Positions 2,940-29,581 are shown, numbered from the stretch's first letter. The stretch: DNA of 44,006 bases from Gemmatimonadota bacterium (GCA_016207445.1 JACQPS010000270.1:1-44006); one strand, 5' to 3'. A program made the numbers and translations. The notes: generated by a model from the letters alone, not told the origin.

Positions 2940-5870
<2,931 letters not shown>

Positions 5871-7439: not shown

Positions 7440-7449
7440 GGAGACTCTC

Positions 7450-10765: not shown

Positions 10766-10767
10766 TG

Positions 10768-10920
10768 TTCACCGCGGAGGCCGCGGAGAGCGCGGAGATC
10801 GCCATCGCGGAGAACCGAGCGGTACCGGGAGCCCAACTTCGAAAATTGACGTTTTGAATTTCGTTGCGTCTGCGGATTGGCGACAAAGGTCTCCGCGGTC
10901 TTTGCGTGCTCTGCGGTGAA
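10768..10920. repeat. Family-2 element, full-length copy (153 bp between TTCACCGC and GCGGTGAA ends)
   Basis: Left arm ttcaccgcggaggccgcggagagcgcggagatcgcc, right arm ggcgacaaaggtctccgcggtctttgcgtgctctgcggtgaa, AT-rich core cttcgaaaattgacgttttgaatttcg. Confidence 0.8.
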
Positions 10921-10942
10921 ATTCTTGACGCTGGAGGCTGCC

Positions 10943-11443
10943 ATGGAGCTGGAGCGCATCCGGGAGATGTTCGAGTACAATCGCTGGGCGAACGAGCGCA
11001 TGCTCGAGGCGGCCGCGACGCTGACGCCGGAGCAGCTCACCCGCGACCTGCGGAACAGCTTTCCCTCCGTCCGCGACACGCTCGCTCATATCGTCGGCGC
11101 GGAGTGGGTCTGGCTCATGCGCTGGCAGGGGACGTCGCCGCAGAAGCTGCCGGACCCGGATGGCTTTGCCACGGTGGCATCGCTGCGCGTCCGTCACGAC
11201 GAGATCGTGCGCGACCGGCAGGAGCTGCTCGACGCGCTGACGGAGGCTGAGCTCGAGCGGGTGATCTCGTACCGCAACTTCAAGGGCGAGCCGTTCGCGT
11301 ATCCGCTCTGGCAGCTACTGCGGCACGTGATCAACCACTCGAGCTACCATCGCGGTCAGATCACGACCCTGCTCCGGCAGCTCGGCGCGCAACCCGTGGG
11401 CACGGACCTGCTGCGCTTCTACGACGCGCGCGCGCCGCGCTGA
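10943..11443 (+). CDS. DinB family (DinB_2-like) metal-dependent protein
   Basis: Start at ATG 10943 after GGAGG. MELERIREMFEYNRWANERMLEAA...LAHIVGAEWVWL...HVINHSSYHRGQI is the typical DinB four-helix-bundle His pattern. Confidence 0.85.
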   Translation: MELERIREMFEYNRWANERMLEAAATLTPEQLTRDLRNSFPSVRDTLAHIVGAEWVWLMRWQGTSPQKLPDPDGFATVASLRVRHDEIVRDRQELLDALTEAELERVISYRNFKGEPFAYPLWQLLRHVINHSSYHRGQITTLLRQLGAQPVGTDLLRFYDARAPR

Positions 11444-11455
11444 TCGTAAGCGAAT

Positions 11456-11478
11456 TTCACCGCGCCCTTTGCGGTGAA
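11456..11478. terminator. Minimal family-2 hairpin (8-bp stem TTCACCGC/GCGGTGAA, 7-nt loop) just after the DinB stop
   Basis: ttcaccgc-gcccttt-gcggtgaa, 13 nt after the TGA at 11441-11443. Confidence 0.55.
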
Positions 11479-11568
11479 CTATTCCATCCTGACCCTCGAC
11501 TTGCCCAAGTTCTTGCCCCAGGCTAGGTTTCCACGCTTTTCGACAACTCGAGCCAAGGGAGTCCTGCC

Positions 11569-12966
11569 ATGCAGCTACGAGCGTCCTGGGGGGCGCTGGC
11601 GGCGCTGGTCCTGGCGGGGTGCGCCCGCGCCGCACCGCAGCCGCCGGCGCCCCGGCCGGAACCGGCCGCGGCGGCCGAGCCTTTCGCCTCCACCTACCGC
11701 CCGCTTCCGTCGCAGCCCACGCTGATCCACAACGCCACGATCCTGACCGCCGTCGGTCCCCGGCTGGAGAACGCTTCGATCCTGCTGCGCGACGGTAAGA
11801 TCGTCGCGGTGGGCCAGGACGTAACGGCGCCGGCGGACGCAGTCGTGATCGACGCGGCCGGCAAATGGGTGACGCCGGGCGTGATCGACACGCACTCCCA
11901 TCTGGGGGTCTATGCCGCGCCGGGCGGCGCCGCGCTCTCGGATGGCAACGAGGCGACCGAGCCGAACACGGCCGAGGTCTGGGCCGAGCACTCGGTCTGG
12001 CCCCAGGACCCGCAGTTCGGCCTCGCGCTCGCCGGCGGCGTGACCAGCATGCAGATCCTGCCCGGCTCGGCCAACCTGTTCGGCGGCCGCGCCGTGACCG
12101 TCAAGAACGTGCCGTCCCGCACGGTGCAGGGGATGAAGTTTCCGGGCGCGCCGCACGGACTGAAGATGGCGTGTGGCGAGAACCCGAAGCGCGTCTACGG
12201 CAACCGCGGCAAGACGCCATCCACGCGCATGGGCAACGTGGCCGGCTACCGCGCCGCCTGGGCGCGCGCGCAGGAGTACGAGCAGGAGTGGCAGCGGTCC
12301 TCGACCGGCCGCAACGGTGATGAGCGCCCCCATCGCGATCTCGAGCTCGAGACCCTGGTCGGCGTCCTCAACGGCAAGATCCTGGTCCAGAATCACTGCT
12401 ACCGGGCCGATGAGATGGCGATCATGATCGACATCGCCCGGGAGTTCGGCTACCGGATCTCCTCCTTCCACCACGCGGTCGAAGCGTACAAGATCGCCGA
12501 CCTGCTCGCGGATAACGGCATCTGCGCCAGCATGTGGGCCGACTGGTGGGGCTTCAAGATCGAGGCCTACGACGGCGTGAAGCAGAACATCGCGCTGGTG
12601 CATGCCGCCGGCGGCTGTGCCATCGTGCACTCCGACTCGCCCGAGGGCATCCAGCGGCTGAATCAGGAGGCGGCCAAGGCGATGGCGGCGGCGAACCAGG
12701 AGGGGATGAACATCACGCGGGAGGATGCGATCCGCTGGATCACCCTCAACCCGGCGAAGGCGATCGGGATCGACCAGTGGACCGGCTCACTCGAGCCGGG
12801 CAAGATGGCGGACGTCGTCATCTGGTCGGGCGATCCCTTCAGCGTCTACAGCAAGGCCGAAAAGGTGTTTGTGGACGGCGCGCTGCTGTACGACCGCCAC
12901 GATCCGCGGCGCCAGCCCAAGAGCGATTTCGAGCTGGGCCTTCTGCCGAAGGAGGTGGCATCGTGA
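11569..12966 (+). CDS. Amidohydrolase family protein (metal-dependent, secreted/lipoprotein)
   Basis: Signal/lipobox VLAGCA; HxH metal motif in GVIDTHSHLG; amidohydrolase-like C-terminus (GSLEPGKMADVVIW). AAGGGAG RBS. Confidence 0.85.
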   Translation: MQLRASWGALAALVLAGCARAAPQPPAPRPEPAAAAEPFASTYRPLPSQPTLIHNATILTAVGPRLENASILLRDGKIVAVGQDVTAPADAVVIDAAGKWVTPGVIDTHSHLGVYAAPGGAALSDGNEATEPNTAEVWAEHSVWPQDPQFGLALAGGVTSMQILPGSANLFGGRAVTVKNVPSRTVQGMKFPGAPHGLKMACGENPKRVYGNRGKTPSTRMGNVAGYRAAWARAQEYEQEWQRSSTGRNGDERPHRDLELETLVGVLNGKILVQNHCYRADEMAIMIDIAREFGYRISSFHHAVEAYKIADLLADNGICASMWADWWGFKIEAYDGVKQNIALVHAAGGCAIVHSDSPEGIQRLNQEAAKAMAAANQEGMNITREDAIRWITLNPAKAIGIDQWTGSLEPGKMADVVIWSGDPFSVYSKAEKVFVDGALLYDRHDPRRQPKSDFELGLLPKEVAS

Positions 12967-14228
12967 GGATCGTGCGCCTCTTCAGCGCGGCGCTGCTCGC
13001 CGCCGCCGCGCCGGCCGCGGCACAGACGGTGGCCATTACGAACGCGAAGCTCTACACCGGCACGGGGACCGTCATCGACGGCGGAACCGTCGTCTTCCGC
13101 GACGGCAGGATCACGGCCGTCGGCGCCGTGGGGGTCCCGGCCGGCGCCCGCGTGATCGACGCGGCCGGCAAGGTGGTCACGCCGGGCTTCCTGGATTCCT
13201 CCACGCAGGTGGGCGTGGTCGAGATCGGGCAGTACGAGGAGACACGCGACGAGGCCACCGCAGACGACCGGATCACGGCCGCGTTCAATGTGGCGGATGG
13301 GATCAACCCCCGCTCCACGCTCATCCCCGTCACGCGCGTGGAGGGGATCACGCGCGTGGTGGTGGCGCCGGGCTCGGGATCGTCGCTCATCGCGGGGCAG
13401 GGCGTACTGATGGACCTGAGCGGCGACCCGCTGTCCGTCACACTGCACCGGAACCCCGTCGCGATGTTCGCGGTGCTGGGCGAGACGGGCGCGGCCCTGG
13501 CGGGGGGCGCGCGCAGCGCGGCACTGCTGCGCCTGCGCGAGGCGCTGCAGGACGCCCGTGACTACCTGGCCAACCGCGAGGCGTTCGAGACCAACCGCCG
13601 CCGCGACTACGCCATCAGCCGGCTCGACCTCGAGGCGCTGGCGCCGCTCGTCCGGGGCGAGCTGCCCCTGGCCGTGCGCGCGGACCGCGCGTCCGACCTG
13701 CTCGCCGCCGCACGGTTCGCTCAGGAGTCCGGCGTCCGGATCGTACTGCTCGGCGCCGCCGAAGGCTGGATGGTGGCCGGCGAGCTCGCGCGCGCCGGCG
13801 TCGCCGTGGTGATCAATCCCATGCAGAACCTGCCCGGCTTCGACAACCTGGGCGCGACGCTGGAGAACGCGGCGCGGCTGCACGCCGCCGGCGTCACGGT
13901 CGCGTTCGCGACCTTCGACGCGCACAACTCGCGCAACCTGAAGCAGGCGGCGGGGAACGCGGTCGCGTACGGCATGCCATGGGAAGCGGCGCTGCGCGCC
14001 GTGACGGCGACGCCCGCCCGCATCTGGGGCGTGGCCGATCGCTTCGGCACGATCGAGGTGGGCAAGGACGCCGATCTCGTCGTCTGGTCGGGCGACCCCT
14101 TCGAGCTCTCGACCGCAGTCGAGCACGTTTTCATCCGCGGGCGTGAGATGCCGAAAGACAACCGCCAGCGGGAGCTCTTCCAGCGCTACCGTGCGCGCGA
14201 GGCGCTGCCGCAAGCGTACGACCATTAA
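12963..14228 (+). CDS. Amidohydrolase family paralogue lacking the HxH motif, translationally coupled to the upstream gene
   Basis: GTG 12963 overlaps TGA 12964-12966 (GTGA). Signal peptide. TPGFLDSSTQVG sits where HxH is expected. C-terminus GTIEVGKDADLVVWSGDPF. Confidence 0.8.
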   Translation: MRIVRLFSAALLAAAAPAAAQTVAITNAKLYTGTGTVIDGGTVVFRDGRITAVGAVGVPAGARVIDAAGKVVTPGFLDSSTQVGVVEIGQYEETRDEATADDRITAAFNVADGINPRSTLIPVTRVEGITRVVVAPGSGSSLIAGQGVLMDLSGDPLSVTLHRNPVAMFAVLGETGAALAGGARSAALLRLREALQDARDYLANREAFETNRRRDYAISRLDLEALAPLVRGELPLAVRADRASDLLAAARFAQESGVRIVLLGAAEGWMVAGELARAGVAVVINPMQNLPGFDNLGATLENAARLHAAGVTVAFATFDAHNSRNLKQAAGNAVAYGMPWEAALRAVTATPARIWGVADRFGTIEVGKDADLVVWSGDPFELSTAVEHVFIRGREMPKDNRQRELFQRYRAREALPQAYDH

Positions 14229-14232
14229 CGAC

Positions 14233-14310
14233 GGTCGACAGTCGACAGTTTACAGTTGACAGTGCCGCTACCGTCAGCCGGTTTACTGTGAACTGTAAAC
14301 TGCAAACTGC
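14233..14310. repeat. Family-1 heptad hairpin repeat after the amidohydrolase operon
   Basis: gtcgac-a-gtcgac-a-gtttac-a-gttgac-a-gtg ... tactgtgaactgtaaactgcaaactgc. Confidence 0.85.
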
Positions 14311-14340
14311 TTGTCCGCGAACCCGACAGGAGCGACGAAC

Positions 14341-14709
14341 ATGAAGAAGGCGAGTGCAATCCTGGCACTGGCGGCGCTCGCAGCCGCGTGCGCCAGCGCA
14401 CCCAAGCTGGCGCCGAAGGCGGGCCCGGAGCAGGTCCAGCTCTTCGATCCGGAGGTCGGCCAGTTCCCGGAGCCAGGCTACAAGACCATCGGCCCGGTAA
14501 AGGCTCGGGTGCCCCTGGGCACGCCCCAGGCCGAGCTGCTCCTCGCCCTGCGGGCGGAGGCCGCGAAGCTGGGGGCGGACGCCGTCGTCGTCCAGAAGAT
14601 CCGCCGCAGCACGGAGGGCGAGACCGGCCTCAGCATGGAGCGGGAAGAGATGATGATCGCCGAAGGCCTAGCCATCTACTGGCCGGCCCCGTCGCAGCCC
14701 AAGCCGTAG
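14341..14709 (+). CDS. Hypothetical lipoprotein
   Basis: ATG 14341 after AGGAG. MKKASAILALAALAAACASAPK lipobox. GC-rich third positions. Confidence 0.7.
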   Translation: MKKASAILALAALAAACASAPKLAPKAGPEQVQLFDPEVGQFPEPGYKTIGPVKARVPLGTPQAELLLALRAEAAKLGADAVVVQKIRRSTEGETGLSMEREEMMIAEGLAIYWPAPSQPKP

Positions 14710-18423: not shown

Positions 18424-18515
18424 GTCGGCCGGCGGCGTTCCCGCCATTGCCCCGCCCGAGGCGCGGGCACTATCTTTTCAGCGGATCCCCCGGCCCACCC
18501 GCCGCAACGTCATTT

Positions 18516-18625: not shown

Positions 18626-21600
18626 ATGGCCCCCGAGAGCACGACCCGCGATCTCGCGACCCCGACGTTCTCCAAGGCGGACCTCGCCGTCCGATTGGAG
18701 GAGGAGGTCGAGCGCGCGCTGCTGGAGGGCTACCCCCTCTCGTTCCTGATCGTCGACCTCGACCACTTCAAGAGCATCAACGACGCGTTCGGGCACGGGC
18801 GTGGGGACGAGGTGCTGCAGGAGTTCGTGCAGCGCGTCCACAAGACGATGCGCAGTACGGACCTGCTGTTTCGCTTCGGCGGCGACGAGTTCGTGCTGCT
18901 CGCGCCCAACACGTCGCTGGTGCAGGGCGGCATGCTCGGACGCCGCGTGCTGGAGGCCGTCCGTGCGACCCCGTTCGAGGGCACGCCGCCCGTCTCGCTG
19001 GCGCTCAGCATCGGCGTAGCGAGCCTGCCGGAGGACGCCCAGACGGGCGGTGAGCTGTTCCAGCGGGCGGACCGGCGCCTGTACGAAGCGAAGCGCCGCG
19101 GCCGCGGGCGTGTGGCCTGGGACGACCACGCCGCGCCCGAGCCACTGGCATTCGATCGCGGTGCCCGCATGATCGAGTGCGACGAGGACCTGGAGACGGT
19201 GCGTGCATTCCTCCAGGGTGTGCTGGAGAAAGGCAAAGGCGCACTCGACGTACGCGGTGCCCCCGGCTCCGGTCGCTCCCGCTTCCTGGTGGAGACGAAG
19301 AGCCTGGCGCGGCTGCTCGGATACGAGATCCTGGAGGTCTCGGGCGAGCCGACGCTGCGCGGGCGCGCGTTCGCCACGCTGAGCCGCGGCCGGACGGGCT
19401 TCGAGGGTGGGATCCCGCGCACAGCCGAGCAGCTGGTGACGGCGCTTCGCGACGAGCTCGAGCGCAAGGCGAAGCCGGGCGTGCTGATCGCGCTCGACGA
19501 CCTCCCCTTCTTCGACCAGGAAACCATCGAGCTCATGACGGCTGCGTTCGCGGCGCCCGAGCTGCCCGTGGTCGCCCTGGCCTACGTCACCGATGGCCAG
19601 ACGCATCCCGTGCTGCCCTCGTCCGAGGGCACATGTGATGCCACTATCGAGCTCACGGGGTTGAGCCCGGCCGGCGTGCGGACGTGGCTGCGCGAAGTGC
19701 TGCGCTGGGAGCCGCCCGAGTCATTCGTCGACTGGCTGCATGCCGAGACGGACGGCTTGCCCGCGCGCGTGCGCGATGGCCTGCTTTACCTCACGGAGAA
19801 GTCGCTGCTGCGCCGCGAGGACGAGGGTTGGATCTTCCCCGATCCACCGCTCACCACGCCGCTGCGCGAGCAGCTGCGTTTCCGCTCCACCGTGCCGCCG
19901 CACAACCTGCCGAAGGTCGAGTCCAGCATTCTGGGCCGGGAGCGGGAGATCAACGAAGCCAAGCGCCTCTTGCGCGCCGGCCGTCTCGTCTCGCTGCTCG
20001 GGCCCGGCGGGATGGGAAAAACCAGGCTCGCGCTCCAGGTCGCGTGGGAGCAGCTGCGGCTCTTCCCGGACGGCTGCTTCTTCGTCGGCCTGGCGGCGAT
20101 CGATTCGCCCGAGCTGCTCGTGCCCACTATCGCGGAAAGCATCCACTTCGAGTTCGCGGGCAGCGCGGACCCGCAGACGCAGCTCTTCGACCATCTGCGC
20201 GGCAAGCGCATGATGCTCGTGACGGACAACTTCGATCACCTGGTCCAGGGCGCGGAGCTGCTGCCCGAGCTGATGGCGTGCTCCTCCGACCTGCGGGTGC
20301 TCGTCACCTCGCGCGAGCGGCTCAATGTGCGGGGCGAGGCGATCCTCGAGTTGCAGGGGCTGTCGGCGGACGCGACGGAGGGAACGACGTCGGCTGCGGC
20401 GCAGCTCTTCCTGAACCGCGCGCGCGCGAGCGTCCCCGGCTACACGCCCTCGGCGGCGGACGGCGCGCAGATCCAGCGTATTTGCCGGCAGGTGGATGGT
20501 TTGCCGCTCGCGATCGAGATCGCGGCGGCGCTGGTGCGCGTGCTCACGTGCGTGGAGATCGCCGCGGAGATCGGCCGCAGCTTCGACGCACTGGTCGCCC
20601 GTCGGCGCGACATGCCGGAGCGACACCGCAGCCTGCGGGCGGTCTTCGACTATTCCTGGAACCTGCTCACGGCGCACGAGCAGACGGCGCTGCGCCGGGT
20701 CTCGGCGTTCCGCGGTGGCTTCCGCGCCGAGGCCGGCCGGCGCGTGGCCGGGCTGTCCGTGCCCGCACTCGCGGCGCTACTCGACAAGTCGTTGTTGCGC
20801 CGCGGCGCCTCGGGCCGCTACGAGCTGCACGGCGTCATCCGCCAGTACGCGGCCGAACGGTTGGGGGCGGACGCCGCCGAGCGCGAGATGGTGGAGCGGC
20901 TCCATTGCGAGTATTTCGCCGACTTCCTCCAGGGCCGCGCGGACCGGCTGCGAGGCCGCGGCCAGCAGCAGGCCCTGGAGGAGATCGGCGCCGAGATCGA
21001 CGATGTGCGAGCCGGCTGGCAGTGGGCGGTCGAGCACGGGGAGGAGCAGCTGATCGAGCGGCTCCTGCCCGCGCTGCACCTGTTCTACGAGCGCCGCGCC
21101 TGGTACCGGGAGGGAGAAGAGTTGCTCGGCTGGGCAGCACGCAAGCTGGGCCGACAGTCCCGGCTCGCGGCGCGCGTGCTCGCGCGGCAAGCGCACTTCT
21201 GCCTGCGGCTGGCACAGTTCACCAAAGCGCGGCGGCTCACCAAGGCCAGCCTGCGCATCCTGCGCGAGTTCGGTCACGATACCGACACGGCATTCGCGCT
21301 CTGGCTGCTCGGCGGCATCGCGCTCAAGACGGGGCAGTACGAGCGCGCGGGCAAGCTCTACCTGCGCTCGGAGCAAATCTACCGCCAGAGCCATTCGCCC
21401 CTCGATCTGGCCGATTGCCTGAACGATCGCGGCTCGGTGGCCATGGCGCAGGGACAGTACGAGCTCGCCGAGCAGCTGTTCCGGCGCAGCCTGCGCATCC
21501 GCCGGCTGGTGGGCAACCAGGCGGGCGTGGTCATGTGCCTCACCAATCTGGGTGTGCTGGCGGACGCACTCGGCAAGGCGGAGGAGGCACAGCGGCTGTT

Positions 21601-22177
21601 CGAGGAAAGCCTGCGCCGCTCGCGCGAGCTGGGCGATTTCCGCAACACGGCCATCGGCCTGGTCAACCTGGGCGCGTTCACCCTCAGCATGGCGAAGCGT
21701 GAGCGCTCGACGCGGCTGCTGCGCCAGGCGCGGGAGCTGCTGGAGCAGAGTCTGGCGATGTTCCGCGAGGTCGGCGACCGCACGGCCACGGTGATCGTGC
21801 TTCACAACCTGGGTGACCTGGCCCGGGAAGAAGGGCTATCGGAAGACGCGCTCGGCTACTATCGCGAGGCGACGACCCTGGCGGCCGAGACCAACGCGCT
21901 GCCGTTGCAGGCACGGGTCGCCGTGGGCTTGGGGCGGCTTCTGGTCGCGTTGGGTCGAACGGCCGAGGGACTCCGCCTGCTCGCCTGCGTCTGCGAGCAC
22001 CCGGCCACGGACCAGTCCGATCGCGAGGAGGCGAAGCAGGCGATCGCCGACCTGCGCGCGAAGCTGCCGGATGATCTCTTCAGCCTCGCGGAAGATGCCG
22101 GCCAGCGCGCCCGGCTCGAGGATCTGCTGCTGGAAACGCTCACGTCCACCCCCGTGTTCGCGAACGCGCCCGCCTGA
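18626..22177 (+). CDS. GGDEF diguanylate cyclase fused to two tandem STAND-type P-loop NTPase modules and a TPR array (1183 aa)
   Basis: GGDEF domain (DLDHFKSINDAFGHGRGD, RSTD-x5-GGDEF). Module 1: GAPGSGRS, VLIALDD, TDGLP (AAA_16-like). Module 2: GPGGMGKT, LVTDNFDHL, RVLVTSRE (NB-ARC/AfsR-like). About 350 aa of TPR-like repeats follow. Confidence 0.9.
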   Translation: MAPESTTRDLATPTFSKADLAVRLEEEVERALLEGYPLSFLIVDLDHFKSINDAFGHGRGDEVLQEFVQRVHKTMRSTDLLFRFGGDEFVLLAPNTSLVQGGMLGRRVLEAVRATPFEGTPPVSLALSIGVASLPEDAQTGGELFQRADRRLYEAKRRGRGRVAWDDHAAPEPLAFDRGARMIECDEDLETVRAFLQGVLEKGKGALDVRGAPGSGRSRFLVETKSLARLLGYEILEVSGEPTLRGRAFATLSRGRTGFEGGIPRTAEQLVTALRDELERKAKPGVLIALDDLPFFDQETIELMTAAFAAPELPVVALAYVTDGQTHPVLPSSEGTCDATIELTGLSPAGVRTWLREVLRWEPPESFVDWLHAETDGLPARVRDGLLYLTEKSLLRREDEGWIFPDPPLTTPLREQLRFRSTVPPHNLPKVESSILGREREINEAKRLLRAGRLVSLLGPGGMGKTRLALQVAWEQLRLFPDGCFFVGLAAIDSPELLVPTIAESIHFEFAGSADPQTQLFDHLRGKRMMLVTDNFDHLVQGAELLPELMACSSDLRVLVTSRERLNVRGEAILELQGLSADATEGTTSAAAQLFLNRARASVPGYTPSAADGAQIQRICRQVDGLPLAIEIAAALVRVLTCVEIAAEIGRSFDALVARRRDMPERHRSLRAVFDYSWNLLTAHEQTALRRVSAFRGGFRAEAGRRVAGLSVPALAALLDKSLLRRGASGRYELHGVIRQYAAERLGADAAEREMVERLHCEYFADFLQGRADRLRGRGQQQALEEIGAEIDDVRAGWQWAVEHGEEQLIERLLPALHLFYERRAWYREGEELLGWAARKLGRQSRLAARVLARQAHFCLRLAQFTKARRLTKASLRILREFGHDTDTAFALWLLGGIALKTGQYERAGKLYLRSEQIYRQSHSPLDLADCLNDRGSVAMAQGQYELAEQLFRRSLRIRRLVGNQAGVVMCLTNLGVLADALGKAEEAQRLFEESLRRSRELGDFRNTAIGLVNLGAFTLSMAKRERSTRLLRQARELLEQSLAMFREVGDRTATVIVLHNLGDLAREEGLSEDALGYYREATTLAAETNALPLQARVAVGLGRLLVALGRTAEGLRLLACVCEHPATDQSDREEAKQAIADLRAKLPDDLFSLAEDAGQRARLEDLLLETLTSTPVFANAPA
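18851..18892 (+). other. I-site (RSTD) and GGDEF active-site motif
   Basis: cgc agt acg gac = RSTD at 18851-18862. ggc ggc gac gag ttc = GGDEF at 18878-18892. Five residues lie between them, the canonical spacing. Confidence 0.85.
19256..19279 (+). other. Degenerate Walker A of NTPase module 1 (GAPGSGRS, Arg in place of Lys)
   Basis: ggt gcc ccc ggc tcc ggt cgc tcc read directly. Confidence 0.8.
20000..20023 (+). other. Canonical Walker A of NTPase module 2 (GPGGMGKT)
   Basis: ggg ccc ggc ggg atg gga aaa acc read directly. Confidence 0.85.
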
Positions 22178-22232: not shown

Positions 22233-22307
22233 GGCCCGACTGTTGCACCCGTGGGGCGCGGGTGCCCGCGCAAGGGATCGGCCATCGCAGCGCGCGCAGG
22301 AGACAGC

Positions 22308-23459
22308 TTGGGTCGCAGCGGCTTCTTCGGGATCGCGACGTTCCTCTACCTGTGGCTGATGGTGGGCTTCGCGACCGGGACGGCCACGCTGCTCGGACCG
22401 GTGAAGTGGCTGACCAGCGCGCTGCGGAGCGCCGGCTGGAGCCAGCACGGGGAAGACCTGGCGGTGAACGGCCTCATCGTGCTGTACCTCGCCGTTTCGT
22501 TCGTGCTCGCCCGTCATCTCCTCCGACGCATGCGCGCAGCGAACCGGCGCCGTGTCCGCATCGGCATCCCCCTCGTCGTCACCGCCGCCGCCACGCTCTC
22601 CCTCTGGGGGTGGCTGCACCCCGCGTTGCTCGCGCGTGCCGCCGGCGGGCCCGGCGGCAGCCTCACGTTCCAGGGGGGAGCCGAGCTCGTCTTCGGGCCG
22701 TATCCGGACCGCGCTCGACTGGCCGAGCTGAAGCGCGCGGGCTTCACGGCCGTCATCTCGCTGCAGCACCCGGCGGTGCTCCCGTTCGAGCCGCGGGGGA
22801 TCACGGCGGAGCGGGAGGCCGCGCGGGAGGTCGGCATCGCGTTCATCCACGCGCCCATGCTGCCGTGGGTCAGCGAGAACGCGGGGTCGCTGCGGAAGAT
22901 CCTGGCGCTGGCGCGGGGGCGCGGACGCTACTACGTGCACTGCGGCCTCGGTCGCGACCGCGCCAACGTGGTCAAGCGCTGGCTGGAGCGAAACGGCGCC
23001 CGCGTGGCCGCGGCTCGGGATTTCACGGCCGCACGCAGCTTCGCGCGCCGCGTGGCCGAGGGCCGCTGGCTCATGGAGCGCGGCCGCATCGTGCGTCTCG
23101 AGCCAGACCTCTGGCTCGTTCCCTATCCGAACCGCCACGAGCTGTTCGGCAACATGCTCGCGGGGCAGCTCGCCTACGTGTTGCTCCTGCTCGACCCGAG
23201 CGACGCCGAACAGCGGGAATGGCTCGCCGAGGCGGAGCGCCTGTTCCGGGAGTTCGATGTGCCGTTCGGCCACCGGCCGGTGGCTGCGAGCGACCGTGCA
23301 GAGATCGGCAGGGCGGCCGCCGCGGCGCGGCGGCTCCCGCGGCCCGCCGCGGTGGTAGTCGCGCGTACGGCGCCGCGCGAGCCCGCGGACCTGGCCCGGG
23401 AGTTCGCGCGCGCCTATGGCGGGACCACGGGAGCCCACGGGCAGGAGGCGGCGCGATGA
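22308..23459 (+). CDS. 3-TM membrane protein with CX5R cysteine phosphatase (DSP/PTP-like) domain plus degenerate second phosphatase-like domain (paralogue 1)
   Basis: TTG 22308 preceded by AGGAG (start chosen by alignment to paralogue 2). Three hydrophobic helices; YYVHCGLGRDRANVVKRWL (HCX5R). The C-terminal half repeats the fold signature without the Cys. Confidence 0.8.
   Translation: MGRSGFFGIATFLYLWLMVGFATGTATLLGPVKWLTSALRSAGWSQHGEDLAVNGLIVLYLAVSFVLARHLLRRMRAANRRRVRIGIPLVVTAAATLSLWGWLHPALLARAAGGPGGSLTFQGGAELVFGPYPDRARLAELKRAGFTAVISLQHPAVLPFEPRGITAEREAAREVGIAFIHAPMLPWVSENAGSLRKILALARGRGRYYVHCGLGRDRANVVKRWLERNGARVAAARDFTAARSFARRVAEGRWLMERGRIVRLEPDLWLVPYPNRHELFGNMLAGQLAYVLLLLDPSDAEQREWLAEAERLFREFDVPFGHRPVAASDRAEIGRAAAAARRLPRPAAVVVARTAPREPADLAREFARAYGGTTGAHGQEAAR
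22938..22961 (+). other. HCX5R phosphatase P-loop of paralogue 1 (HCGLGRDR)
   Basis: cac tgc ggc ctc ggt cgc gac cgc read directly; Cys is codon 212. Confidence 0.8.
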
Positions 23460-24571
23460 AGCAGCGGCCGGTCGTCGTCGTCTTCCTGTTCCTCTACCTC
23501 TGGCTGGTCGTCGGGTTCTTCGCCGGAACCGTTACGCTGCTCGGTCCCGTCCGCTGGCTGACCGCGCTCGTGCGCGCGGCGAGCTGGACGCAAGGCCGCG
23601 AGAATGTCGCGGTCGCGGGCGTGATCGCGGCGTACCTGATCGCCTCGCTCGCGCTCGCACGCTGGCTGCTGCGTGTCGTGCTGCGCGCACAGCGCCGGGG
23701 CGTACGCTTCGGGATCCCCCTGGGCATCACGGTCGCGGCAGCAGTCTGTCTGTGGGCGTGGATGCAGCCGGGCACGCTGGCGCGGCCCGACGCCGGTCCC
23801 TCCCAGCGCGTCGCGCTGGCCAGCGGCGCCCAGTTCGTGTTCGGTCCCTATCCGGATGCGGAGCGGCTGCGGCGCCTGAAAGCAGACGGCTTTACGGCCG
23901 TCATCTCGCTGCTGCATCCGGCGGTGCTGCCGTTCGAGCCGAAGATCCTGGCGGAGGAGCGGCGGAACGCGCGCGCGGCGGGACTTGCCCTGATGCACGC
24001 CCCCATGCTGCCGTGGGTCGGATCGAACGAGCGCTCGCTCGCCGAGATCCGGCGCCTGGCCACGGGCGCGGGGCGCTATTACGTGCACTGCTATCTGGGG
24101 CGCGATCGCGCCAACGTGGTCAAGCGGGTGCTCGAGGACATGGGCAGGGCCGTGGCGGGTGCCGCCGACCTGCAGCAGCTGCGCGGATTCGAGGAGCGGA
24201 GCGAGCCGTTCGAGCGCGGTCCGCTCCAGCGTCTCGAGCGCGGCGTGTGGCTGATCCCGTATCCCAACCAGCACGAGCTGTTCGCGTACCTGCTGTTCGG
24301 GTCGGTTCGTCACGTCGTGCTGCTGCTCGACCCCGCGTTTCCGCAGCAAAGAGGATGGCTGTCCGAAGCCGAGCGCCTCTTCCGGGAATATGCCATGCCG
24401 TTCACACTCGAGCCGCTGCGCGGGGGCGATGCCGCGCGTGCGGCCGAGATCGCACGGCGCGTGCGAGTGCTGCCCCGACCGGTCGCGGTCGTCGCGGCCT
24501 TCACGGACGCGGCGAAGGATACGCGCGTGGCACGCGCCTTCCGGGCGGCGTACGGCGTCGGGACACAGTAA
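23456..24571 (+). CDS. 3-TM membrane protein with CX5R cysteine phosphatase domain plus degenerate second domain (paralogue 2)
   Basis: ATG 23456 overlaps TGA 23457-23459 (ATGA). About half of residues identical to paralogue 1 by eye. YYVHCYLGRDRANVVKRVL. Confidence 0.85.
   Translation: MKQRPVVVVFLFLYLWLVVGFFAGTVTLLGPVRWLTALVRAASWTQGRENVAVAGVIAAYLIASLALARWLLRVVLRAQRRGVRFGIPLGITVAAAVCLWAWMQPGTLARPDAGPSQRVALASGAQFVFGPYPDAERLRRLKADGFTAVISLLHPAVLPFEPKILAEERRNARAAGLALMHAPMLPWVGSNERSLAEIRRLATGAGRYYVHCYLGRDRANVVKRVLEDMGRAVAGAADLQQLRGFEERSEPFERGPLQRLERGVWLIPYPNQHELFAYLLFGSVRHVVLLLDPAFPQQRGWLSEAERLFREYAMPFTLEPLRGGDAARAAEIARRVRVLPRPVAVVAAFTDAAKDTRVARAFRAAYGVGTQ
24086..24109 (+). other. HCX5R phosphatase P-loop of paralogue 2 (HCYLGRDR)
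   Basis: cac tgc tat ctg ggg cgc gat cgc; Cys is again codon 212. Confidence 0.8.
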
Positions 24572-24727
24572 TTCACCGCAAAGGACGCAAAGACCGCAAA
24601 GGGGTTCGTCGCAGAACGCCGCAGGCCCAGCGAGATTCAAGACTTCAATTATTGAAGTTTCGATTTCTGGCAACGGACGGATCTCGCGTTGCCGGACCTC
24701 GGCGTCCTTTGCGATCTTTGCAGTGAA
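24572..24727. repeat. Family-2 element, full-length copy (156 bp) filling the gap between two convergent stop codons
   Basis: ttcaccgcaaaggacgcaaagaccgcaaagg ... cgtcctttgcgatctttgcagtgaa. The core holds the AT-rich palindrome acttcaat-t-attgaagt and the hairpin ggcaacg...cgttgcc. Confidence 0.8.
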
Positions 24728-24728
24728 A

Positions 24729-26198
24729 CTACTCGCCTGGCCCCGCCGGCTGCGGCCCGGGTGCGAACGCCTGCCAGCCGGTCGGCCCGATGAGCGGGCG
24801 CCCCTGCAGCTTGTAAAGGGCCGCCTCCAGGATCACGGCGGCGGTATTGATGTCCGTGACGCCGGTCGGGACGAGCGACTCCTCGTACAGCCCCGAGTGC
24901 CAGCCCTCGTCGCTGCGCGCCTTGCGCAGCTCTGTGAGCACGCGCTCGGTGTACTCGTTGGGGAAGAGCGCGTGCCAGCCGAAGGCGGCCTTGGTGCTGA
25001 TCCAGCGCGGGCGGTCGAAGTTCTTGCCCGGTGAGGCCGCGTCAATGACCCACGCCTTGCCGTTGCAGAAGACGCAGTAGTAGTAGAAGTAGTACGGCGG
25101 CACGCTGAGCGCGTCCTCGCTCACCATCGTGAGCTTCCCCGTCTGCCGGTACCTTGCCTCCTGCGCTGCGAGGACGTTGCGCGCCAGCTCGCGGACCTCG
25201 GGCGTCCAGCCCAGCTCGATGCCCATGAGGAAGAACGGCTCGCTGGTGAGGCGGTCCAGCTTGCGCCGGTCCCGGTAGAGCGGTACGCCCAGCAGCGTCA
25301 TCGGCTGCGCGTTGGCCATCAGGTCCAGCGCCTTCTCGGCGCGATGCCCCCAGACGGCGAAGCCGATCGCGGCGTACTGCTCGTAGCCGATGCGTCCTTC
25401 CAGGTAGCGCCAGCGTTTCCCCTTCTGACTCGCGCTCGGCTGCTCGCCGTGCAGGTAGCCGCCCCGGATGACGCGCCCGAAGTCGGTGCGGTTCACGATC
25501 GCCTGCACGTCCTGCGCGTACTGCGGCTGGTTCACGGCCACGATCTTCAACCACACGAGGAAGCGGCCGAGGTCGATGGCGGACCAGCCGTGCGCCAGCG
25601 GCCGTTCGGCCCGGGTCGGCAACACGCCGGTGCGCGTCGCGTAGTCCTTGTTGTACGTGATGCCGTCGACGAGCGGCGCTCGCTTCAGCGTTGCGAGCAG
25701 GCGGCGCATGCGACGGTCGTACTCGGCATCGCGCAGCAGGTCGAGCTCGTGGGCGGAGTAGAGGGCGGCGATCCCGCTGGCGATGTCCCAGGTGGTCGCG
25801 TAATCCCAGTGCGGCGTCGCGCTCATCAGCCCGGTCGCGGGCTGGTAGGTTCGCTCCACCAGCCGCCACGCGGTCCGCGCCGCGTCCAGGTAGAGGTTCA
25901 GGTCCGCACCGGCGTTCTCCGGCTCGATGCCGGGGCGCGCTCCGGCCGCCGGCGCGGTGCCGGCCGACGGGGGCTCGCTCGCGGGGCCGCCTGGCCGTGG
26001 CGCCTCCTGCGAGCAGATCGCGAGCAACAGACCTGCGCCCAGCGCCAGCACGGGGGCCGCCACGAGCGCCTGCCCACGGACGCGGCTCCCGATCCGGCCG
26101 TGCAGAGATGCGACGACGCCCGCCACGCGCCCCACGCCGCGGACCGTCTGCGTCGGCGCCTCTGCTCCGCCGTGCATGATTCCGGGCTTCCTTGTCAT
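24729..26198 (-). CDS. Secreted or N-terminally anchored Trp/Tyr-rich helical protein, possibly DUF3131-type (glycan hydrolase/binding-like)
   Basis: TM/lipobox-like LVAAPVLALGAGLLLAICS, Pro/Ala linker, then about 380 aa with TTWDIASGIAALY, GWSAIDLGRFLVWL, YYFYYYCVFCNGKAW. Family call is from memory only. Alternative start ATG 26177. Confidence 0.6.
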   Translation of the reverse strand: MTRKPGIMHGGAEAPTQTVRGVGRVAGVVASLHGRIGSRVRGQALVAAPVLALGAGLLLAICSQEAPRPGGPASEPPSAGTAPAAGARPGIEPENAGADLNLYLDAARTAWRLVERTYQPATGLMSATPHWDYATTWDIASGIAALYSAHELDLLRDAEYDRRMRRLLATLKRAPLVDGITYNKDYATRTGVLPTRAERPLAHGWSAIDLGRFLVWLKIVAVNQPQYAQDVQAIVNRTDFGRVIRGGYLHGEQPSASQKGKRWRYLEGRIGYEQYAAIGFAVWGHRAEKALDLMANAQPMTLLGVPLYRDRRKLDRLTSEPFFLMGIELGWTPEVRELARNVLAAQEARYRQTGKLTMVSEDALSVPPYYFYYYCVFCNGKAWVIDAASPGKNFDRPRWISTKAAFGWHALFPNEYTERVLTELRKARSDEGWHSGLYEESLVPTGVTDINTAAVILEAALYKLQGRPLIGPTGWQAFAPGPQPAGPGE

Positions 26199-26458
26199 CT
26201 CCGTTCAGTTCGCCGGCGTTCCGTGACCCGTAGCGGGCGGTCTTGCGCGAGCGCGACCAGGGCAAGCTTTGCGCCAGGCGCTCGGCGTGCGGGGTCATGA
26301 ATCCTGCTGGCGCACAGCGCTTACTCTGGCGGCCGAGTCCGTCGCGCCGCGCGGCACGAGAGCGGGGCAGGGCACGAATCTTCCGATTCGGATCGCGGGT
26401 CGGCGCGCCGAGCGCACACGAAGGCCCGTTCCTGGGCGGGAGGGGTGGTGGAGGAGAG

Positions 26459-28780
26459 ATGAGCGAGGCTTCCGTGGATTCCGGGGGCGGAGCCGCCATG
26501 CTCGAGCCAGTGTCGATCCCGCCCGCGGACGCCACGCCCCGGCTTCCCGAGTGGCAGGAACGCATCATTCGATTCGTCGCGGCGCTGGCGCTGGCGTTCG
26601 GCTGCTACTGGGTCACCTGGCGCTGGACGAGCACGCTCAATCTCTCCGCACTCTGGTTCTCGCTCCCGCTCGTGCTCGCGGAGACGTGGGTCGCCGTCCG
26701 CAGCTTCTTCACCACGTTCACCACCTGGAAGCTGCGGCGCCGCGAGCCCCGGCCCGCGCCGCCGGGTCTCTCGGTCGACGTCTTCATCACGACCTACGAC
26801 GAGCCGCTCGAGATCATTCGTCGCACGGCGGTCGCGGCGCGCCAGATCCGCTACCCGCACCGGACCTACCTCCTGGACGACGGCAAGCGCGAGGAAGTGC
26901 GGGCGCTGGCCGGGGAGCTGGGCGTGGACTACATCCGGCGTGCGGGCAACGAGCACGCGAAGGCCGGGAACCTGAATCACGCGCTCTCGGTCACACAGGG
27001 CGAATTCATCCTCCAGCTCGACGCCGACCACGTCCCGCTGCCGCACATCCTCGACCGGCTGCTCGGCTTCTTCGACGATGCTCGCACCGCCTTCGTACAG
27101 TCGCCGCAGGACTTCTACAACGTGGACTCGTTCACGCACGACGTGAACGAAAAGGCGCGCCGGATCTGGGAGGAGCAACGGCTGTTCTTCTCCATCATCC
27201 AGCCTGGAAAGGACCACTGGAACGCGGCCTTCTTCTGCGGGAGCTGCGGCGTGATCCGTCGCGCGGCGCTCGACCATATCGGCGGATTCTCGACGCTGAC
27301 CCTGACGGAGGACATGGAGACGTCGCTGGTGCTGCACGGCCGCGGCTGGCGCTCCGTCTTCTGGGGAGAGAGCCTCGCCTATGGTCTGGCGCCCGCCTCG
27401 GCCGCCGCCTACCACGTCCAGCGCCTGCGCTGGGGCCAGGGGGCGATGCAGATCCTGCGGAAGCTGAACCCGCTGCGCTACCCCGGGCTCACGCTGGCGC
27501 AGCGCATCTGCTACCTGGATTCGGTTTCCTCGTATCTCGACGGCTTTGCCAAGCTGGTGCTGTACCTGTCGCCCATCGTGTTCTTCTTCAGCGGGGTCCT
27601 GCCGATCCATACGACCGATCACGAGTTCCTGGTGCGGTTCATCCCGTTCCTGGCGCTGCAGCTGACCGCCCACACGCTGCTGTTCCGCGGCTCCGCCTTC
27701 CTGCGATTGGCCGAGCGCTACAACATGTCGAAGTTCTTCACGTACGTGGTGGCGATCAGCGGCTACTTCGCGAAGGGACGGCTGCGCTTCCACGTGACGC
27801 CGAAGGGGCCGGGCGACGTTCCGTTCAAGACCTATGCGCCGCAGCTCGTGCTGGTCGTGCTCACCGTGCTCGCGGTGAGCTGGGGCACGCTCGCGTCGAC
27901 GCTCGGGTGGATGAACTACCAGGTGCCGGGGTGGGGATCGCTCGCGTTCTGGTTCAACTTCGGCTGGGCGCTCTACCACTTCGCCTTCGCCGGCTACGTG
28001 TTGCAGCTCAGCCTGTACGTGAAGCAGCAGCGTGCGGACCAGCGGTTTCGCGACGAGTTCCCGGTCGAGGTGTCGCTCCTCGACCCGGGGGGTCGCGAAG
28101 CGGGTCGCTGCGTCGCGCTCACGAGCAATCTGCATCCCGGGGGCGTCGCGCTGCGGGCGATGGCGCCGGTGGAGCCCGGTACGCGCGTGCTGGTACGCTT
28201 GCCGCTGCTGCCCCGCACGGTGGCAGCGCACGGCGTGATCGTGCACCGCCAGGCGCGGCAGACGCGGCACGGGCCGGTGTACGCGCACGGAGTGCGATTC
28301 GAGGGGTTGTCCCTGGACGACCGCGATGCGATCGAGCTGCACTGCACGCAACACGCCGCGCCGGCGCGGCGGCTGCGCTACCGCGATGCCTCCGACCTGT
28401 TCAACGGCGCGGTCCGCTGGATCTACGATGCGCGCTCGGATCGTCGGCGCGTCGTACGCTTGCCCGTGCGCATCTCGCTCGAGGCGCCAGATGGGCCGGC
28501 CGCCCTGGGGCTCGGACTGCTCGAGGATGTGAGCCGGCGCGGCGCCCGGCTTCAGCTCGGCCACCCGCTGCCGCCGGGCGCCCGGATCGGCTACGAGATC
28601 CCCGGCTCCGAGATCGCCGGGGCCGGCGTGGTCGTCTTCACGCGCGCGCTGGAGACGCCGCTGGGCGTGCAGTTCACGGTGGGGGTGAAGCTCGACGTGG
28701 TCGCGGCCACCGGCCGTTCGTGGCGGCGCCTCGGCGCCGCCAGGCTGGTACGGAGAGTGCAATCACTGACACGGGCCTGA
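26459..28780 (+). CDS. BcsA-like processive GT2 glycan synthase with two C-terminal PilZ domains
   Basis: ATG 26459 after GGAGGAG. Motifs TTYDEP, HAKAGNLN, LDADH, QSPQDF, FFCGSCGVIRR, LTEDMETS, QRLRWGQG (27419-27433). Multiple TM helices. PilZ-1 RADQRFR...SNLHPGG; PilZ-2 DRRRVVRLPV...EDVSRRGARL. Confidence 0.9.
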   Translation: MSEASVDSGGGAAMLEPVSIPPADATPRLPEWQERIIRFVAALALAFGCYWVTWRWTSTLNLSALWFSLPLVLAETWVAVRSFFTTFTTWKLRRREPRPAPPGLSVDVFITTYDEPLEIIRRTAVAARQIRYPHRTYLLDDGKREEVRALAGELGVDYIRRAGNEHAKAGNLNHALSVTQGEFILQLDADHVPLPHILDRLLGFFDDARTAFVQSPQDFYNVDSFTHDVNEKARRIWEEQRLFFSIIQPGKDHWNAAFFCGSCGVIRRAALDHIGGFSTLTLTEDMETSLVLHGRGWRSVFWGESLAYGLAPASAAAYHVQRLRWGQGAMQILRKLNPLRYPGLTLAQRICYLDSVSSYLDGFAKLVLYLSPIVFFFSGVLPIHTTDHEFLVRFIPFLALQLTAHTLLFRGSAFLRLAERYNMSKFFTYVVAISGYFAKGRLRFHVTPKGPGDVPFKTYAPQLVLVVLTVLAVSWGTLASTLGWMNYQVPGWGSLAFWFNFGWALYHFAFAGYVLQLSLYVKQQRADQRFRDEFPVEVSLLDPGGREAGRCVALTSNLHPGGVALRAMAPVEPGTRVLVRLPLLPRTVAAHGVIVHRQARQTRHGPVYAHGVRFEGLSLDDRDAIELHCTQHAAPARRLRYRDASDLFNGAVRWIYDARSDRRRVVRLPVRISLEAPDGPAALGLGLLEDVSRRGARLQLGHPLPPGARIGYEIPGSEIAGAGVVVFTRALETPLGVQFTVGVKLDVVAATGRSWRRLGAARLVRRVQSLTRA
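28027..28330 (+). other. PilZ domain 1 (RxxxR present, DxSxxG degenerate: NLHPGG)
   Basis: QQRADQRFRDEFPVEV...ALTSNLHPGGVALRA...GVRFEGL. Confidence 0.6.
28432..28720 (+). other. PilZ domain 2 (canonical RxxxR and DxSxxG)
   Basis: RSDRRRVVRLPVRISL...LLEDVSRRGARLQL...GVQFTVG. Confidence 0.7.
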
Positions 28781-28816
28781 GAAGGTGCCCGCGGTCCGGC
28801 TATGGAGGCGAATGGC

Positions 28817-29581
28817 ATGAAACAGCTCACCTTTACAAGCAGGGCGGCCATCGGCGGGGCGCTGGCTCTGACCCTGGCCGCGCTGAATCCGCTGTCCGCG
28901 CAGGTGGTCACAGGGGTCGGCGTCGGCGAGGTGTCGGGCGACGACGTGTCCCTGATCCTGCTGGGCGGCGCCGTCCATCCGGGCGGTCTCGGGTGGAAGC
29001 CGGTGGCGAGCCTGACGGGCTACCGGGTCTCCTTCCCGGCCACTGCAGACGAGAACGCGGAGATCTGGGCGCTGACGCCGGCGGTCGGGCTGCGCTATCG
29101 CATGAGCACCGGGGCGGTCCAGGCGAAGGTCGGCTACACATTTCAGAGCGAGGACCGCGAGGAAGCGTTGGGGCGTGTCTTCGGCGGCGGGAACAGCGGC
29201 GTCGTGACCTCGGCCCAGGCCGACTACTGGGGCGACGGCCGCTGGGGCCTGCAGGCGATCGGCGCCCTCAACCTGGAATCGGAGTACCTGTGGAGCCGCG
29301 GCCGCGCCATGCGGCGCGTGTACGGCTGGGATACGGGCTCCGCGCTCGCCGGCCTCGACGCCACCTGGCAGGGTGACATCGACGGCAGCGACCTGAACCG
29401 CTATCGCGCGTTCCAGATCGGGCCCGTCGCGCAGTGGGTGATCAACCCACTCGGGCTGATCGTCATCGGCGGCGCCGGTATCAAAGACGACAACACGATC
29501 CGGGACGAGACCTGGTACGCGCGCCTCGAGCTCGTCTGGTCGTCATCGCTGCGGCGGCGGGAGACAGTGGCGCGGGATTAG
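28817..29581 (+). CDS. Putative outer-membrane beta-barrel protein
   Basis: ATG 28817 eight nt after GGAGG. Signal peptide ending LSAQ. Alternating hydrophobic/polar strands rich in G, Y, W (VGLRYRM, AKVGYTFQ, WGLQAIGALNL, ARLELVW). Confidence 0.6.
   Translation: MKQLTFTSRAAIGGALALTLAALNPLSAQVVTGVGVGEVSGDDVSLILLGGAVHPGGLGWKPVASLTGYRVSFPATADENAEIWALTPAVGLRYRMSTGAVQAKVGYTFQSEDREEALGRVFGGGNSGVVTSAQADYWGDGRWGLQAIGALNLESEYLWSRGRAMRRVYGWDTGSALAGLDATWQGDIDGSDLNRYRAFQIGPVAQWVINPLGLIVIGGAGIKDDNTIRDETWYARLELVWSSSLRRRETVARD

Follow-up and report, generated by a model that had tools for sequence, protein, structure and literature searches.

A putative diguanylate cyclase on a tandem-NOD, NLR-like STAND chassis in a Gemmatimonadota bacterium

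Most diguanylate cyclases, the enzymes that make cyclic di-GMP (c-di-GMP), are controlled by N-terminal sensor domains, with a helical stalk as the link. It is less clear what switches the many 'orphan' cyclases of the cytoplasm. Here we describe a family of GGDEF proteins that would offer one such switch, in which an ATP/ADP-driven STAND module, a repeat sensor and a tether act on a GGDEF domain placed first in the chain. The member studied (the query) is encoded at positions 18626 to 22177 of a 44,006-nucleotide stretch of DNA from a Gemmatimonadota bacterium (GCA_016207445.1 JACQPS010000270.1:1-44006); this whole stretch is called the window below. The query, of 1183 residues, is probably a soluble diguanylate cyclase that is gated by a signal and uses a STAND (NLR-like) chassis.

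Among described cyclases, PleD and WspR are activated by enforced dimer or tetramer formation, and it is established for both that catalysis needs two GTP-loaded GGDEF domains. Among STAND proteins, PH0952 and MalT pass from a closed ADP-bound state, held by autoinhibitory contacts between the nucleotide-binding domain (NBD) and the sensor, to an open ATP-bound multimer, and this transition is driven by an inducer together with ATP (PMC6468293). For AfsR, the nucleotide-binding oligomerisation domain (NOD) and the tetratricopeptide repeats (TPRs) are reported to inhibit the N-terminal effector, and ATP binding to relieve this inhibition (PMC10936776). An original prediction, made from the window sequence by itself, had seen in the query a GGDEF effector followed by NTPase modules and repeats, in the manner of STAND proteins such as MalT and AfsR.

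Domain layout of the query and its family

The features of the gene are given below, with residue numbers (aa) referring to the query.

18626..22177, + strand: whole gene, encoding a GGDEF / pseudo-NOD / NB-ARC / TPR protein of 1183 aa (open reading frame, translation, AlphaFold2 model)
18650..19120, + strand: GGDEF diguanylate cyclase domain, aa 9-165 (Pfam PF00990, TIGR00254, Foldseek)
18851..18862, + strand: RxxD inhibitory site (I-site), R76-S-T-D79 (alignment of homologues)
18878..18892, + strand: GGDEF active-site motif, aa 85-89 (alignment of homologues)
19121..19162, + strand: flexible linker joining GGDEF to module 1, aa 166-179 (AlphaFold2 confidence, pLDDT, under 50 for aa 169-173; aa 158-185 free of secondary structure)
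19163..19921, + strand: module 1, putative AAA_16/Cdc6-like STAND NOD (NBD, helical and winged-helix parts) with a non-canonical P-loop, aa 180-432 (profiles, AlphaFold2, Foldseek)
19256..19279, + strand: Walker A-like loop of module 1, GAPGSGRS, aa 211-218, with Arg217 at the Lys position (alignment)
19922..20875, + strand: module 2, NB-ARC (AP-ATPase type) NOD with NBD, helical and winged-helix parts, aa 433-750 (Pfam, NCBIfam AfsR, motifs)
20000..20023, + strand: Walker A of module 2, GPGGMGKT, aa 459-466, with K465 (alignment)
20876..22150, + strand: arm, about 8 TPR pairs and a helical cap, aa 751-1175, presumed sensor (Pfam, AlphaFold2, alignments)

An in-frame stop codon lies directly upstream of the gene (the stop-to-stop frame starts at 18623). 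Because this stop precedes the ATG codon, no N-terminal extension of the 1183-residue protein is possible. The protein thus starts with its GGDEF domain, from residue 9, and has no N-terminal sensor or transmembrane domain, as originally proposed. The GC content by codon position (0.74/0.47/0.90) resembles that of the surrounding genes, and an identical protein is on public record (P0001) under the name "diguanylate cyclase". The full-length AlphaFold2 model had a mean pLDDT of 86.7 and was confident inside domains but not in how they are placed to each other (predicted TM-score, pTM, 0.53). It showed a disordered tether of ~15 residues at aa 166-180.

The GGDEF domain was recognised by Pfam PF00990 over aa 9-161 (E 1.6e-36; 125.9 bits, the cut-off being 23.8) and by TIGR00254 (E 6.4e-40, 136.6 bits against 37.4). 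In Foldseek it superposed on solved GGDEF cyclases with a root-mean-square deviation of 1.5-1.8 A, including PleD (2v0n), WspR (3i5a/3bre) and a GCN4-WspR fusion (3i5c). Conservation was assessed on 120 full-length homologues (31-46% identity), and residue invariance was taken from 51 sequences. The GGDEF motif was retained in 119 of the 120 homologues. The I-site, separated from it by the five residues between D79 and G85, kept its R and D in all of the commonest variants; D79 was invariant and R76 at least 90% conserved. The claim of an intact GGDEF motif with a canonical I-site (RSTD) five residues ahead of it was therefore correct, and it extends to the family. D44, N52, D61, K156 and R160 were also invariant; by mapping to PleD, we take them to be the metal-, guanine- and phosphate-binding residues. 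From these invariant catalytic and I-site residues, the enzyme is predicted to be active, product-inhibited and GTP-specific, and to make c-di-GMP. A Hypr-type (cGAMP) enzyme was considered and rejected: Asp61 is presumably the specificity position, by the residue mapping assumed here for Hypr GGDEF enzymes, and its invariance would point to c-di-GMP and not to cGAMP.

The same conservation bears on another reading, in which the query would bind c-di-GMP through its I-site as a scaffold or receptor, with the NOD-TPR part recruiting partners and little catalysis taking place. The I-site is indeed strictly conserved, TPRs are protein-interaction modules, and module 1 (see below) shows that the family tolerates the loss of enzymatic motifs. 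However, receptor-type GGDEF domains usually lose their active site and substrate residues, and here the active-site motif is kept almost throughout the family while the metal- and substrate-binding residues do not vary. A receptor with little activity is thus very improbable.

Module 2 was matched by Pfam NB-ARC (PF00931) over aa 453-678, with 27.2 bits against a cut-off of 23.5, and the five homologues scanned gave 28.5-36.3 bits. Over the same stretch AAA_22 also passed its own cut-off and NACHT fell slightly below; the NCBIfam AfsR model aligned partially over aa 405-753. In the Walker A motif GPGGMGKT, G462, G464 and K465 were invariant, and the module 2 variants listed among the 120 homologues all ended in GK followed by T or S. 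K465 had been named as the Walker A lysine, and the position of the motif at aa 459-466 agrees with this. D534 of the Walker B motif (MLVTDNF) was invariant, R563 of 'TSR' in VTSRE was at least 90% conserved, and a GLPLA motif was found at aa 625-629. In the winged-helix part, His735 lies in 'YELHGV' (family consensus 'YEMHELLRQYA') and can be equated with the MHD histidine by position only. Judged by these motifs, module 2 is an apparently intact NB-ARC with a complete set of switch motifs.

Module 1 was less easily recognised. Pfam gave no match over aa 180-432 of the query, whose weak AAA_16 match sits outside the module, at aa 436-473. Four homologues (P0003, P0008, P0011 and P0048) showed near-whole-model AAA_16 matches at module 1, with whole-protein scores of 37-54 bits against 32.6; in P0008 the match covered aa 201-330 with 53.9 bits. 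The family profile of module 1, compared with the PDB, found Cdc6 (E 6.2e-13) and more weakly ORC1 (E about 1e-3). In hhalign, modules 1 and 2 aligned with 95.6% probability (E 1.3e-8, 184 columns), and their motifs were paired: RLIERD with FVGRE, GxxGSGRS with GPGGIGKT, VDDL with LDNF and GLP with GMPLG. Modelled alone, module 1 reached a pLDDT of 84 and a pTM of 0.80, and Foldseek matched this model to Cdc6/Orc1, CED-4 and the NB-ARC of Sr35. Because the homologue matches, the Cdc6 profile match, the hhalign alignment and the structural comparison agree, we assign module 1 as a second NOD. The query thus appears to carry two tandem STAND NODs which, at 17% identity, would have diverged long ago. 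A recent internal duplication as their source was ruled out by this low identity and by their different best Pfam families.

The canonical Walker A lysine is absent from module 1 of the query, which has Arg217 in its place. Among the 120 homologues this position was Arg in 67, Lys in 28 and another residue in 25 (including Ile in 9, His in 6, Ala in 4 and Cys in 3). The arginine is a trait of the family and not peculiar to the query. A tandem NOD with a degenerate first P-loop is the one unusual feature of this family, and such a natural STAND could show what a pseudo-NTPase contributes to NLR-type assemblies.

The C-terminal part was covered from aa ~850 to 1120 by Pfam TPR families (TPR_12 in three stretches, TPR_10, TPR_1/2/8 and TPR_MalT, the last with 38.7 bits, under its cut-off of 45), and AlphaFold2 predicted unbroken helical hairpins from ~750 to 1175. 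The best PDB fold match of the full model was the STAND-TPR protein PH0952 (6MFV; E 2.7e-14, 762 columns, TM-score 0.57 on the target, 16% identity). AfsR (8k60, 8jke) was the only solved protein that aligned by sequence from NOD through TPR, over ~670 residues. The AlphaFold2 model, the Foldseek match to 6MFV and the AfsR alignment agree on a core of NBD, helical and winged-helix domains, followed by the arm and repeat sensor, with the effector domain separate.

Altogether, the proposed order of effector, NTPase and repeats held, on the evidence of the NB-ARC motif set, the AfsR alignment and the PH0952 fold match. Two P-loop modules were present (aa 211-218 and aa 459-466), as was the repeat stretch. 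Domain searches sustained the prediction for GGDEF, for module 2 and for several TPR families; for AAA_16 they gave only the weak match already mentioned, and module 1 was recognised only via the family.

A search with the module 1 profile against 1.84 billion cluster representatives (E <= 1e-30) matched 286 proteins, or ~286 clusters at 50% identity. Among the best 150 matches, module 1 mostly starts at about residue 170-185, which corresponds to the layout with GGDEF first; the exceptions were fragments and longer variants. The members named belong to Longimicrobiaceae and other Gemmatimonadota, Anaerolineales, Roseiflexaceae, Chloroflexaceae, Symbiobacteriaceae, Polyangiaceae and Deinococcota, and their source names are all plain 'diguanylate cyclase'. 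A scan of metagenomes with the module 1 alignment gave 4 loci. The scan of a genome collection with the full-length alignment, which worked through generic GGDEF peptides, gave at least about 4 true family loci among the matches listed. Identity to the query was 52% for GGDEF, 44-45% for NB-ARC, 30% for the NBD of module 1, 31% for the arm and 28% for the TPRs, so that arm and TPRs (28-31%) are the least conserved part of the protein. The family is found in lineages with complex lifestyles (Chloroflexota, Gemmatimonadota, Myxococcota), in which, to our knowledge, c-di-GMP signalling has been little studied.

A phosphodiesterase domain was added in 8 of the 120 listed homologues, as HD-GYP fused at the C-terminus (P0011, P0012, P0023) or as EAL (P0044, P0063, P0065, P0066, P0093). 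At three Longimicrobiaceae loci the cyclase gene is followed by a sigma54 activator without a receiver-domain match and, at two of them, by a separate TPR-HD-GYP protein in an operon-like array; this protein shares 53% identity with the C-terminal fusion part of P0011, and P0011, P0012 and P0023 carry the same TPR-HD-GYP unit joined to the cyclase. The coordinates of these arrays are as follows.

L081 8471-11205; L082 5619-8386; L084 8390-9373; L086 10001-15253: Longimicrobiaceae arrays of cyclase homologue, sigma54 enhancer-binding protein (327-351 aa) and, at two loci, TPR-HD-GYP protein

The HD-GYP and EAL domains of the relatives and the TPR-HD-GYP gene of the Longimicrobiaceae loci suggest that the chassis is dedicated to c-di-GMP turnover. 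The array could be a cassette to make, break and read c-di-GMP. At another locus, the family gene is followed directly, on the other strand, by a second open reading frame that clusters with the cyclase family (L093 8613-10076, - strand) and might be a paralogue of TPR or GGDEF type.

A proposed switch and a nucleotide-sensing alternative

We propose the following sequence of events. At rest, the NB-ARC module would be ADP-bound and closed through contacts with the arm and TPRs, with the GGDEF domains monomeric and idle. A ligand in the TPR groove (protein, peptide or metabolite) would, together with ATP, open the NOD and lead to multimerisation. The multimer would raise the local concentration of the tethered GGDEF domains, which could then form the GTP-loaded catalytic dimer and make c-di-GMP, until the RxxD I-site curbs the output through product inhibition. 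Module 1 might serve as a non-hydrolysing spacer or as a second oligomerisation layer, which is speculative. Activation by induced proximity is inferred because catalysis needs two GTP-loaded domains. By analogy with the described systems, a STAND switch in which TPR- and ATP-gated oligomerisation brings GGDEF domains together is the likely mode of action.

Several points weigh against this mechanism. No biochemical data were found for any family member. The full-length model, at its pTM of 0.53, does not predict interdomain geometry, so that a productive placement of GGDEF domains in an oligomer would be an assumption. The Walker B motif of module 2 has 'DN' rather than 'DD', so hydrolysis may be slow. 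Finally, the role given to module 1 is guesswork.

The STAND comparison also allows a different kind of input. The query could sense the energy or nucleotide state of the cell with no dedicated ligand: ATP alone would relieve the NOD/TPR inhibition, and c-di-GMP would track ATP/ADP or phosphorylation. AfsR, the sole solved protein that aligns from NOD through TPR, would be the precedent, its inhibition being reportedly removed by ATP binding (PMC10936776). Moreover, the family is accompanied by no conserved gene whose product might be a ligand. On the other hand, about 8 well-formed TPRs are retained and are nevertheless the most divergent part (28% identity), which fits diversified ligand binding better than a lid, and STANDs of the PH0952/MalT type with TPR sensors use inducers. 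We consider a ligand-free sensor unlikely, and the TPR- and ATP-gated switch is kept as the preferred mechanism.

The neighbouring exopolysaccharide module and the defence reading

Mobile and defence genes are absent from the window, which is ordinary chromosomal DNA. Besides the cyclase gene, it encodes an inositol monophosphatase, a symporter, a UvrA-like protein, M16 peptidases, a family 2 glycosyltransferase (GT2), DinB, amidohydrolases, gyrA and cysK, and further an alkaline phosphatase, peptidases, a transglycosylase, a HAD hydrolase and a DsbA-like protein. No insertion scars were found around the cyclase gene. An exopolysaccharide (EPS) module starts 75-130 bp downstream of it. The features on either side of the gene are listed below.

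18451..18468, + strand: terminator-like GC-rich hairpin followed by a T-rich run, just after cysK and upstream of the cyclase gene (consensus scan)
22308-23459 and 23456-24571, + strand: two tandem paralogous genes for membrane proteins resembling protein tyrosine phosphatases (PTP-like, CX5R), EPS module (frame plot, translations, public records)
24729..26198, - strand: DUF3131 protein, EPS module (Pfam PF11329, 7.5e-97; orthologues by the synthase in L095 and L097)
26243..28780, + strand: BcsA-like GT2 synthase with two PilZ-like regions, EPS module (Glycos_transf_2, Cellulose_synt, PilZ 1.2e-15)
28802..29581, + strand: 259-aa protein, EPS module (homologous to ~250-aa genes by the synthase in L097, 35%, and L099, 45%)

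The hairpin after cysK is a candidate terminator and gives a slight hint that cysK is divided from the cyclase gene, which might then have its own promoter. The same consensus scan found no terminator-like hairpin after the cyclase gene. A shared 10-mer, GTTGCACCCG, lies past the cyclase gene (window 22242-22251) and, in L099, past cysK (781-790), in both cases ahead of the first PTP-like gene. If this is a regulatory element that was retained, as it may be, the EPS genes would seem to keep a control region of their own.

The two PTP-like proteins are 53% identical to each other, and each has N-terminal transmembrane helices and a CX5R phosphatase-like motif, 'HC(G/Y)LGRDR'. A mechanical open reading frame of 769 aa (22262-24571), which would make them a single gene, was rejected as a high-GC artefact, since the frame plot and translations showed two genes. 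The proteins had no match in Pfam, NCBIfam, PADLOC or PDB sequences; the JGI name of their homologues is 'PTP superfamily phosphohydrolase (DUF442 family)'. The 259-aa protein gave only a weak Phenol_MetA_deg match. The BcsA-like synthase scored 398 bits with TIGR03030 (CelA), under the cut-off of 699. Its second PilZ-like region is canonical (RSDRR...DVSRRG, for RxxxR...DxSxxG); the first reads RADQR...NLHPGG, where His replaces the Ser of DxSxxG. The synthase is described here as a candidate local c-di-GMP receptor. It may read c-di-GMP in this genome, and a role as the main reader would be speculative. The annotated TTG start of the synthase is probably too far upstream, its first ~70 residues being rich in Arg and Gly.

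The EPS module (22308-29581) recurs in three other loci (L095, L097 and L099), on contigs of Gemmatimonadota and Acidobacteriota type, as one or more PTP-like proteins, a DUF3131 protein, a BcsA-like GT2, most often with PilZ, and a ~250-aa protein. In L097 the genes stand together, with identities of 47% for the DUF3131 protein, 54% over 737 aa for the GT2-PilZ synthase, 49% for the PTP-like protein and 35% for the ~250-aa protein. L095 has a similar set, in which the synthase has no PilZ match on record. That a cellulose-synthase-like enzyme has a phosphatase-like membrane protein of the CX5R kind as its fixed partner appears to be undescribed. Beside the EPS module of L097 lies a gene for a 1256-aa TIR-NB-ARC-WD40 STAND protein (10693-14463, - strand).

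In one of its two readings, the original prediction had seen the query as a c-di-GMP source for an adjacent PilZ-gated synthase. The gene does abut a PilZ-gated EPS module, and for this genome a dedicated regulator of that module is what we would predict. The synthase itself is no immediate neighbour, as its start lies 4 kb downstream, past two genes on the same strand and one on the opposite strand. Neither is the link conserved, and this counts against the EPS part of our proposal. L099 is a syntenic relative with orthologues 59-70% identical, in the order cysK, PTP-like A, PTP-like B, GT2-PilZ, ~250-aa gene, alkaline phosphatase, C26 peptidase and S58 peptidase; its EPS genes come directly after cysK, and it has neither a cyclase nor a DUF3131 gene. 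The window neighbours had no homologue in the 13 other family loci, and the EPS module was found in 0 of these 13. Clustering of flanking open reading frames over 14 loci revealed no recurrent neighbour apart from the Longimicrobiaceae set and a generic ABC ATPase. Similarly, no GGDEF gene was found within 8 kb of the EPS modules of L095 and L097, the two with wide flanks. Judged by gene content, the pairing of cyclase and EPS module would be specific to this lineage and not a property of the family, and the case for the query as c-di-GMP source of the PilZ-gated synthase is circumstantial.

The genomic context also bears on the second role that had been suggested for the query, that of an anti-phage or conflict sensor of the Avs/NLR-like kind, in which the TPRs would detect a foreign protein and a burst of c-di-GMP would trigger downstream effectors. 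The effector-NOD-repeat layout and the variable TPR array are compatible with this, and two neighbours can be cited as anecdotes: an NNH3-NACHT-pentapeptide gene (L081 382-3087) 1.5 kb upstream of a cyclase homologue, and phage-tail-like genes ~7 kb away in L088. Moreover, defence and non-defence STAND clades are interspersed (PMC13581612). However, PADLOC gave only the generic 'TPR repeats containing protein' (PDLC01169) for the query and nothing for six neighbours. The query lies among housekeeping genes such as gyrA, cysK, peptidases and amidohydrolases, no neighbour recurs across the 14 family loci, and the downstream membrane proteins belong to the EPS module. In IMG/VR (2.9 million viral contigs, 70 GGDEF matches) there was no full-length member. 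Furthermore, c-di-GMP is a housekeeping messenger, the I-site is homeostatic, and the HD-GYP and EAL domains fused in relatives point to regulated turnover. A defence-type sensor is thus not supported and seems extremely unlikely. In a published census, 198 of 589 prokaryotic STAND clades were called defence-associated, the grounds being defence genes no more than 5 kb away or an immune effector (PMC13581612); on the evidence available here the family falls under neither heading.

The downstream membrane proteins were also considered as defence effectors. This was rejected, as they have no PADLOC, Pfam, NCBIfam or PDB sequence match and are conserved EPS components.

One further possibility would join the two roles. 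The family could be NLR-like receptors with a non-lethal messenger burst: the TPRs would sense a foreign, kin or developmental macromolecule, a two-layer tandem-NOD oligomer would form in which the ring of degenerate first NODs positions GGDEF pairs, and matrix production, here by the PilZ-gated EPS module, would be switched on as an inducible protection. We regard this as quite improbable and retain the signal-gated cyclase described above.

Two side observations concern the window itself. A 1442-aa UvrA-like open reading frame (1542-5870, + strand), in which ABC ATPase and UvrA DNA-binding domains are duplicated, runs into the gene for a sodium:dicarboxylate symporter (986-2410, - strand); because of this overlap with a gene on the other strand, its N-terminus is probably over-called. 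Two consecutive M16 peptidase genes (5952-9738) follow, the second fused to a C-terminal DUF3108.

Relation to known systems

No description of a GGDEF-STAND fusion was found in the searchable literature, in which subscription journals are thinly covered and a passing mention, for example in the 2004 STAND classification, is possible. In Kaur et al. 2020, GGDEF figures solely among the rare effectors of vWA-MoxR systems. The original prediction would have been weakened if the architecture had belonged to a common, already characterised family with no conserved link to the neighbouring genes. The architecture is indeed common and the link to neighbours is not conserved; the searchable literature held no characterisation. 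By domain and motif tests the query counts as a GGDEF cyclase and as a STAND of the NB-ARC type, but neither as an Rv0386-type cyclase nor as an Avs protein. The family is well populated, visible in databases and uncharacterised, and it combines known parts in a plausible way.

Antiviral STANDs of the Avs/NLR-like kind share the order of effector, NOD and TPR and the variable repeat sensor. The query differs from them in having no specific PADLOC match, no toxic effector, no defence-island context and no occurrence on viral contigs.

AfsR of Streptomyces coelicolor (SARP-NOD-TPR; 8K60, 8JKE) resembles the query in its NB-ARC-type NOD, arm and TPRs and in its N-terminal effector. However, this effector is a DNA-binding SARP (OmpR-type winged helix-turn-helix and BTAD), which the query lacks, its N-terminus being GGDEF, and AfsR has a single NOD against two. 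With the AfsR model NF053617 the query scored 67.6 bits against a cut-off of 1430 and aligned only to AfsR 268-618. Thus, the query is not an AfsR. The best fold match of the full model, PH0952/MalT (6MFV), has also a distinct effector: MalT carries a C-terminal LuxR helix-turn-helix (HTH). Its STAND clade is the MalT type, in contrast to the NB-ARC type of module 2 in the query, and identity to 6MFV is 16%.

The mycobacterial proteins Rv0386, Rv1358 and Rv2488c share the general layout, with an N-terminal nucleotide cyclase followed by an AAA_16/MalT-type ATPase and TPRs (10.1101/2024.03.06.583649). Their cyclase is a class III adenylyl cyclase and they have a single NTPase and a C-terminal HTH; the query has GGDEF, a degenerate AAA_16 module plus NB-ARC, and no HTH. 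In Pfam, no Guanylate_cyc or GerE/LuxR match was found in the query at E up to 0.1. The fold of GGDEF is nevertheless common to class III cyclases, according to Pei and Grishin 2001 as cited in PMC7159879.

Finally, PleD and WspR have, like the query, a canonical GGDEF motif with an RxxD I-site. In these enzymes an N-terminal receiver (REC) domain and a helical stalk precede the cyclase, whereas in the query the GGDEF domain comes first and its only regulatory link is the flexible C-terminal tether to the STAND NTPase.

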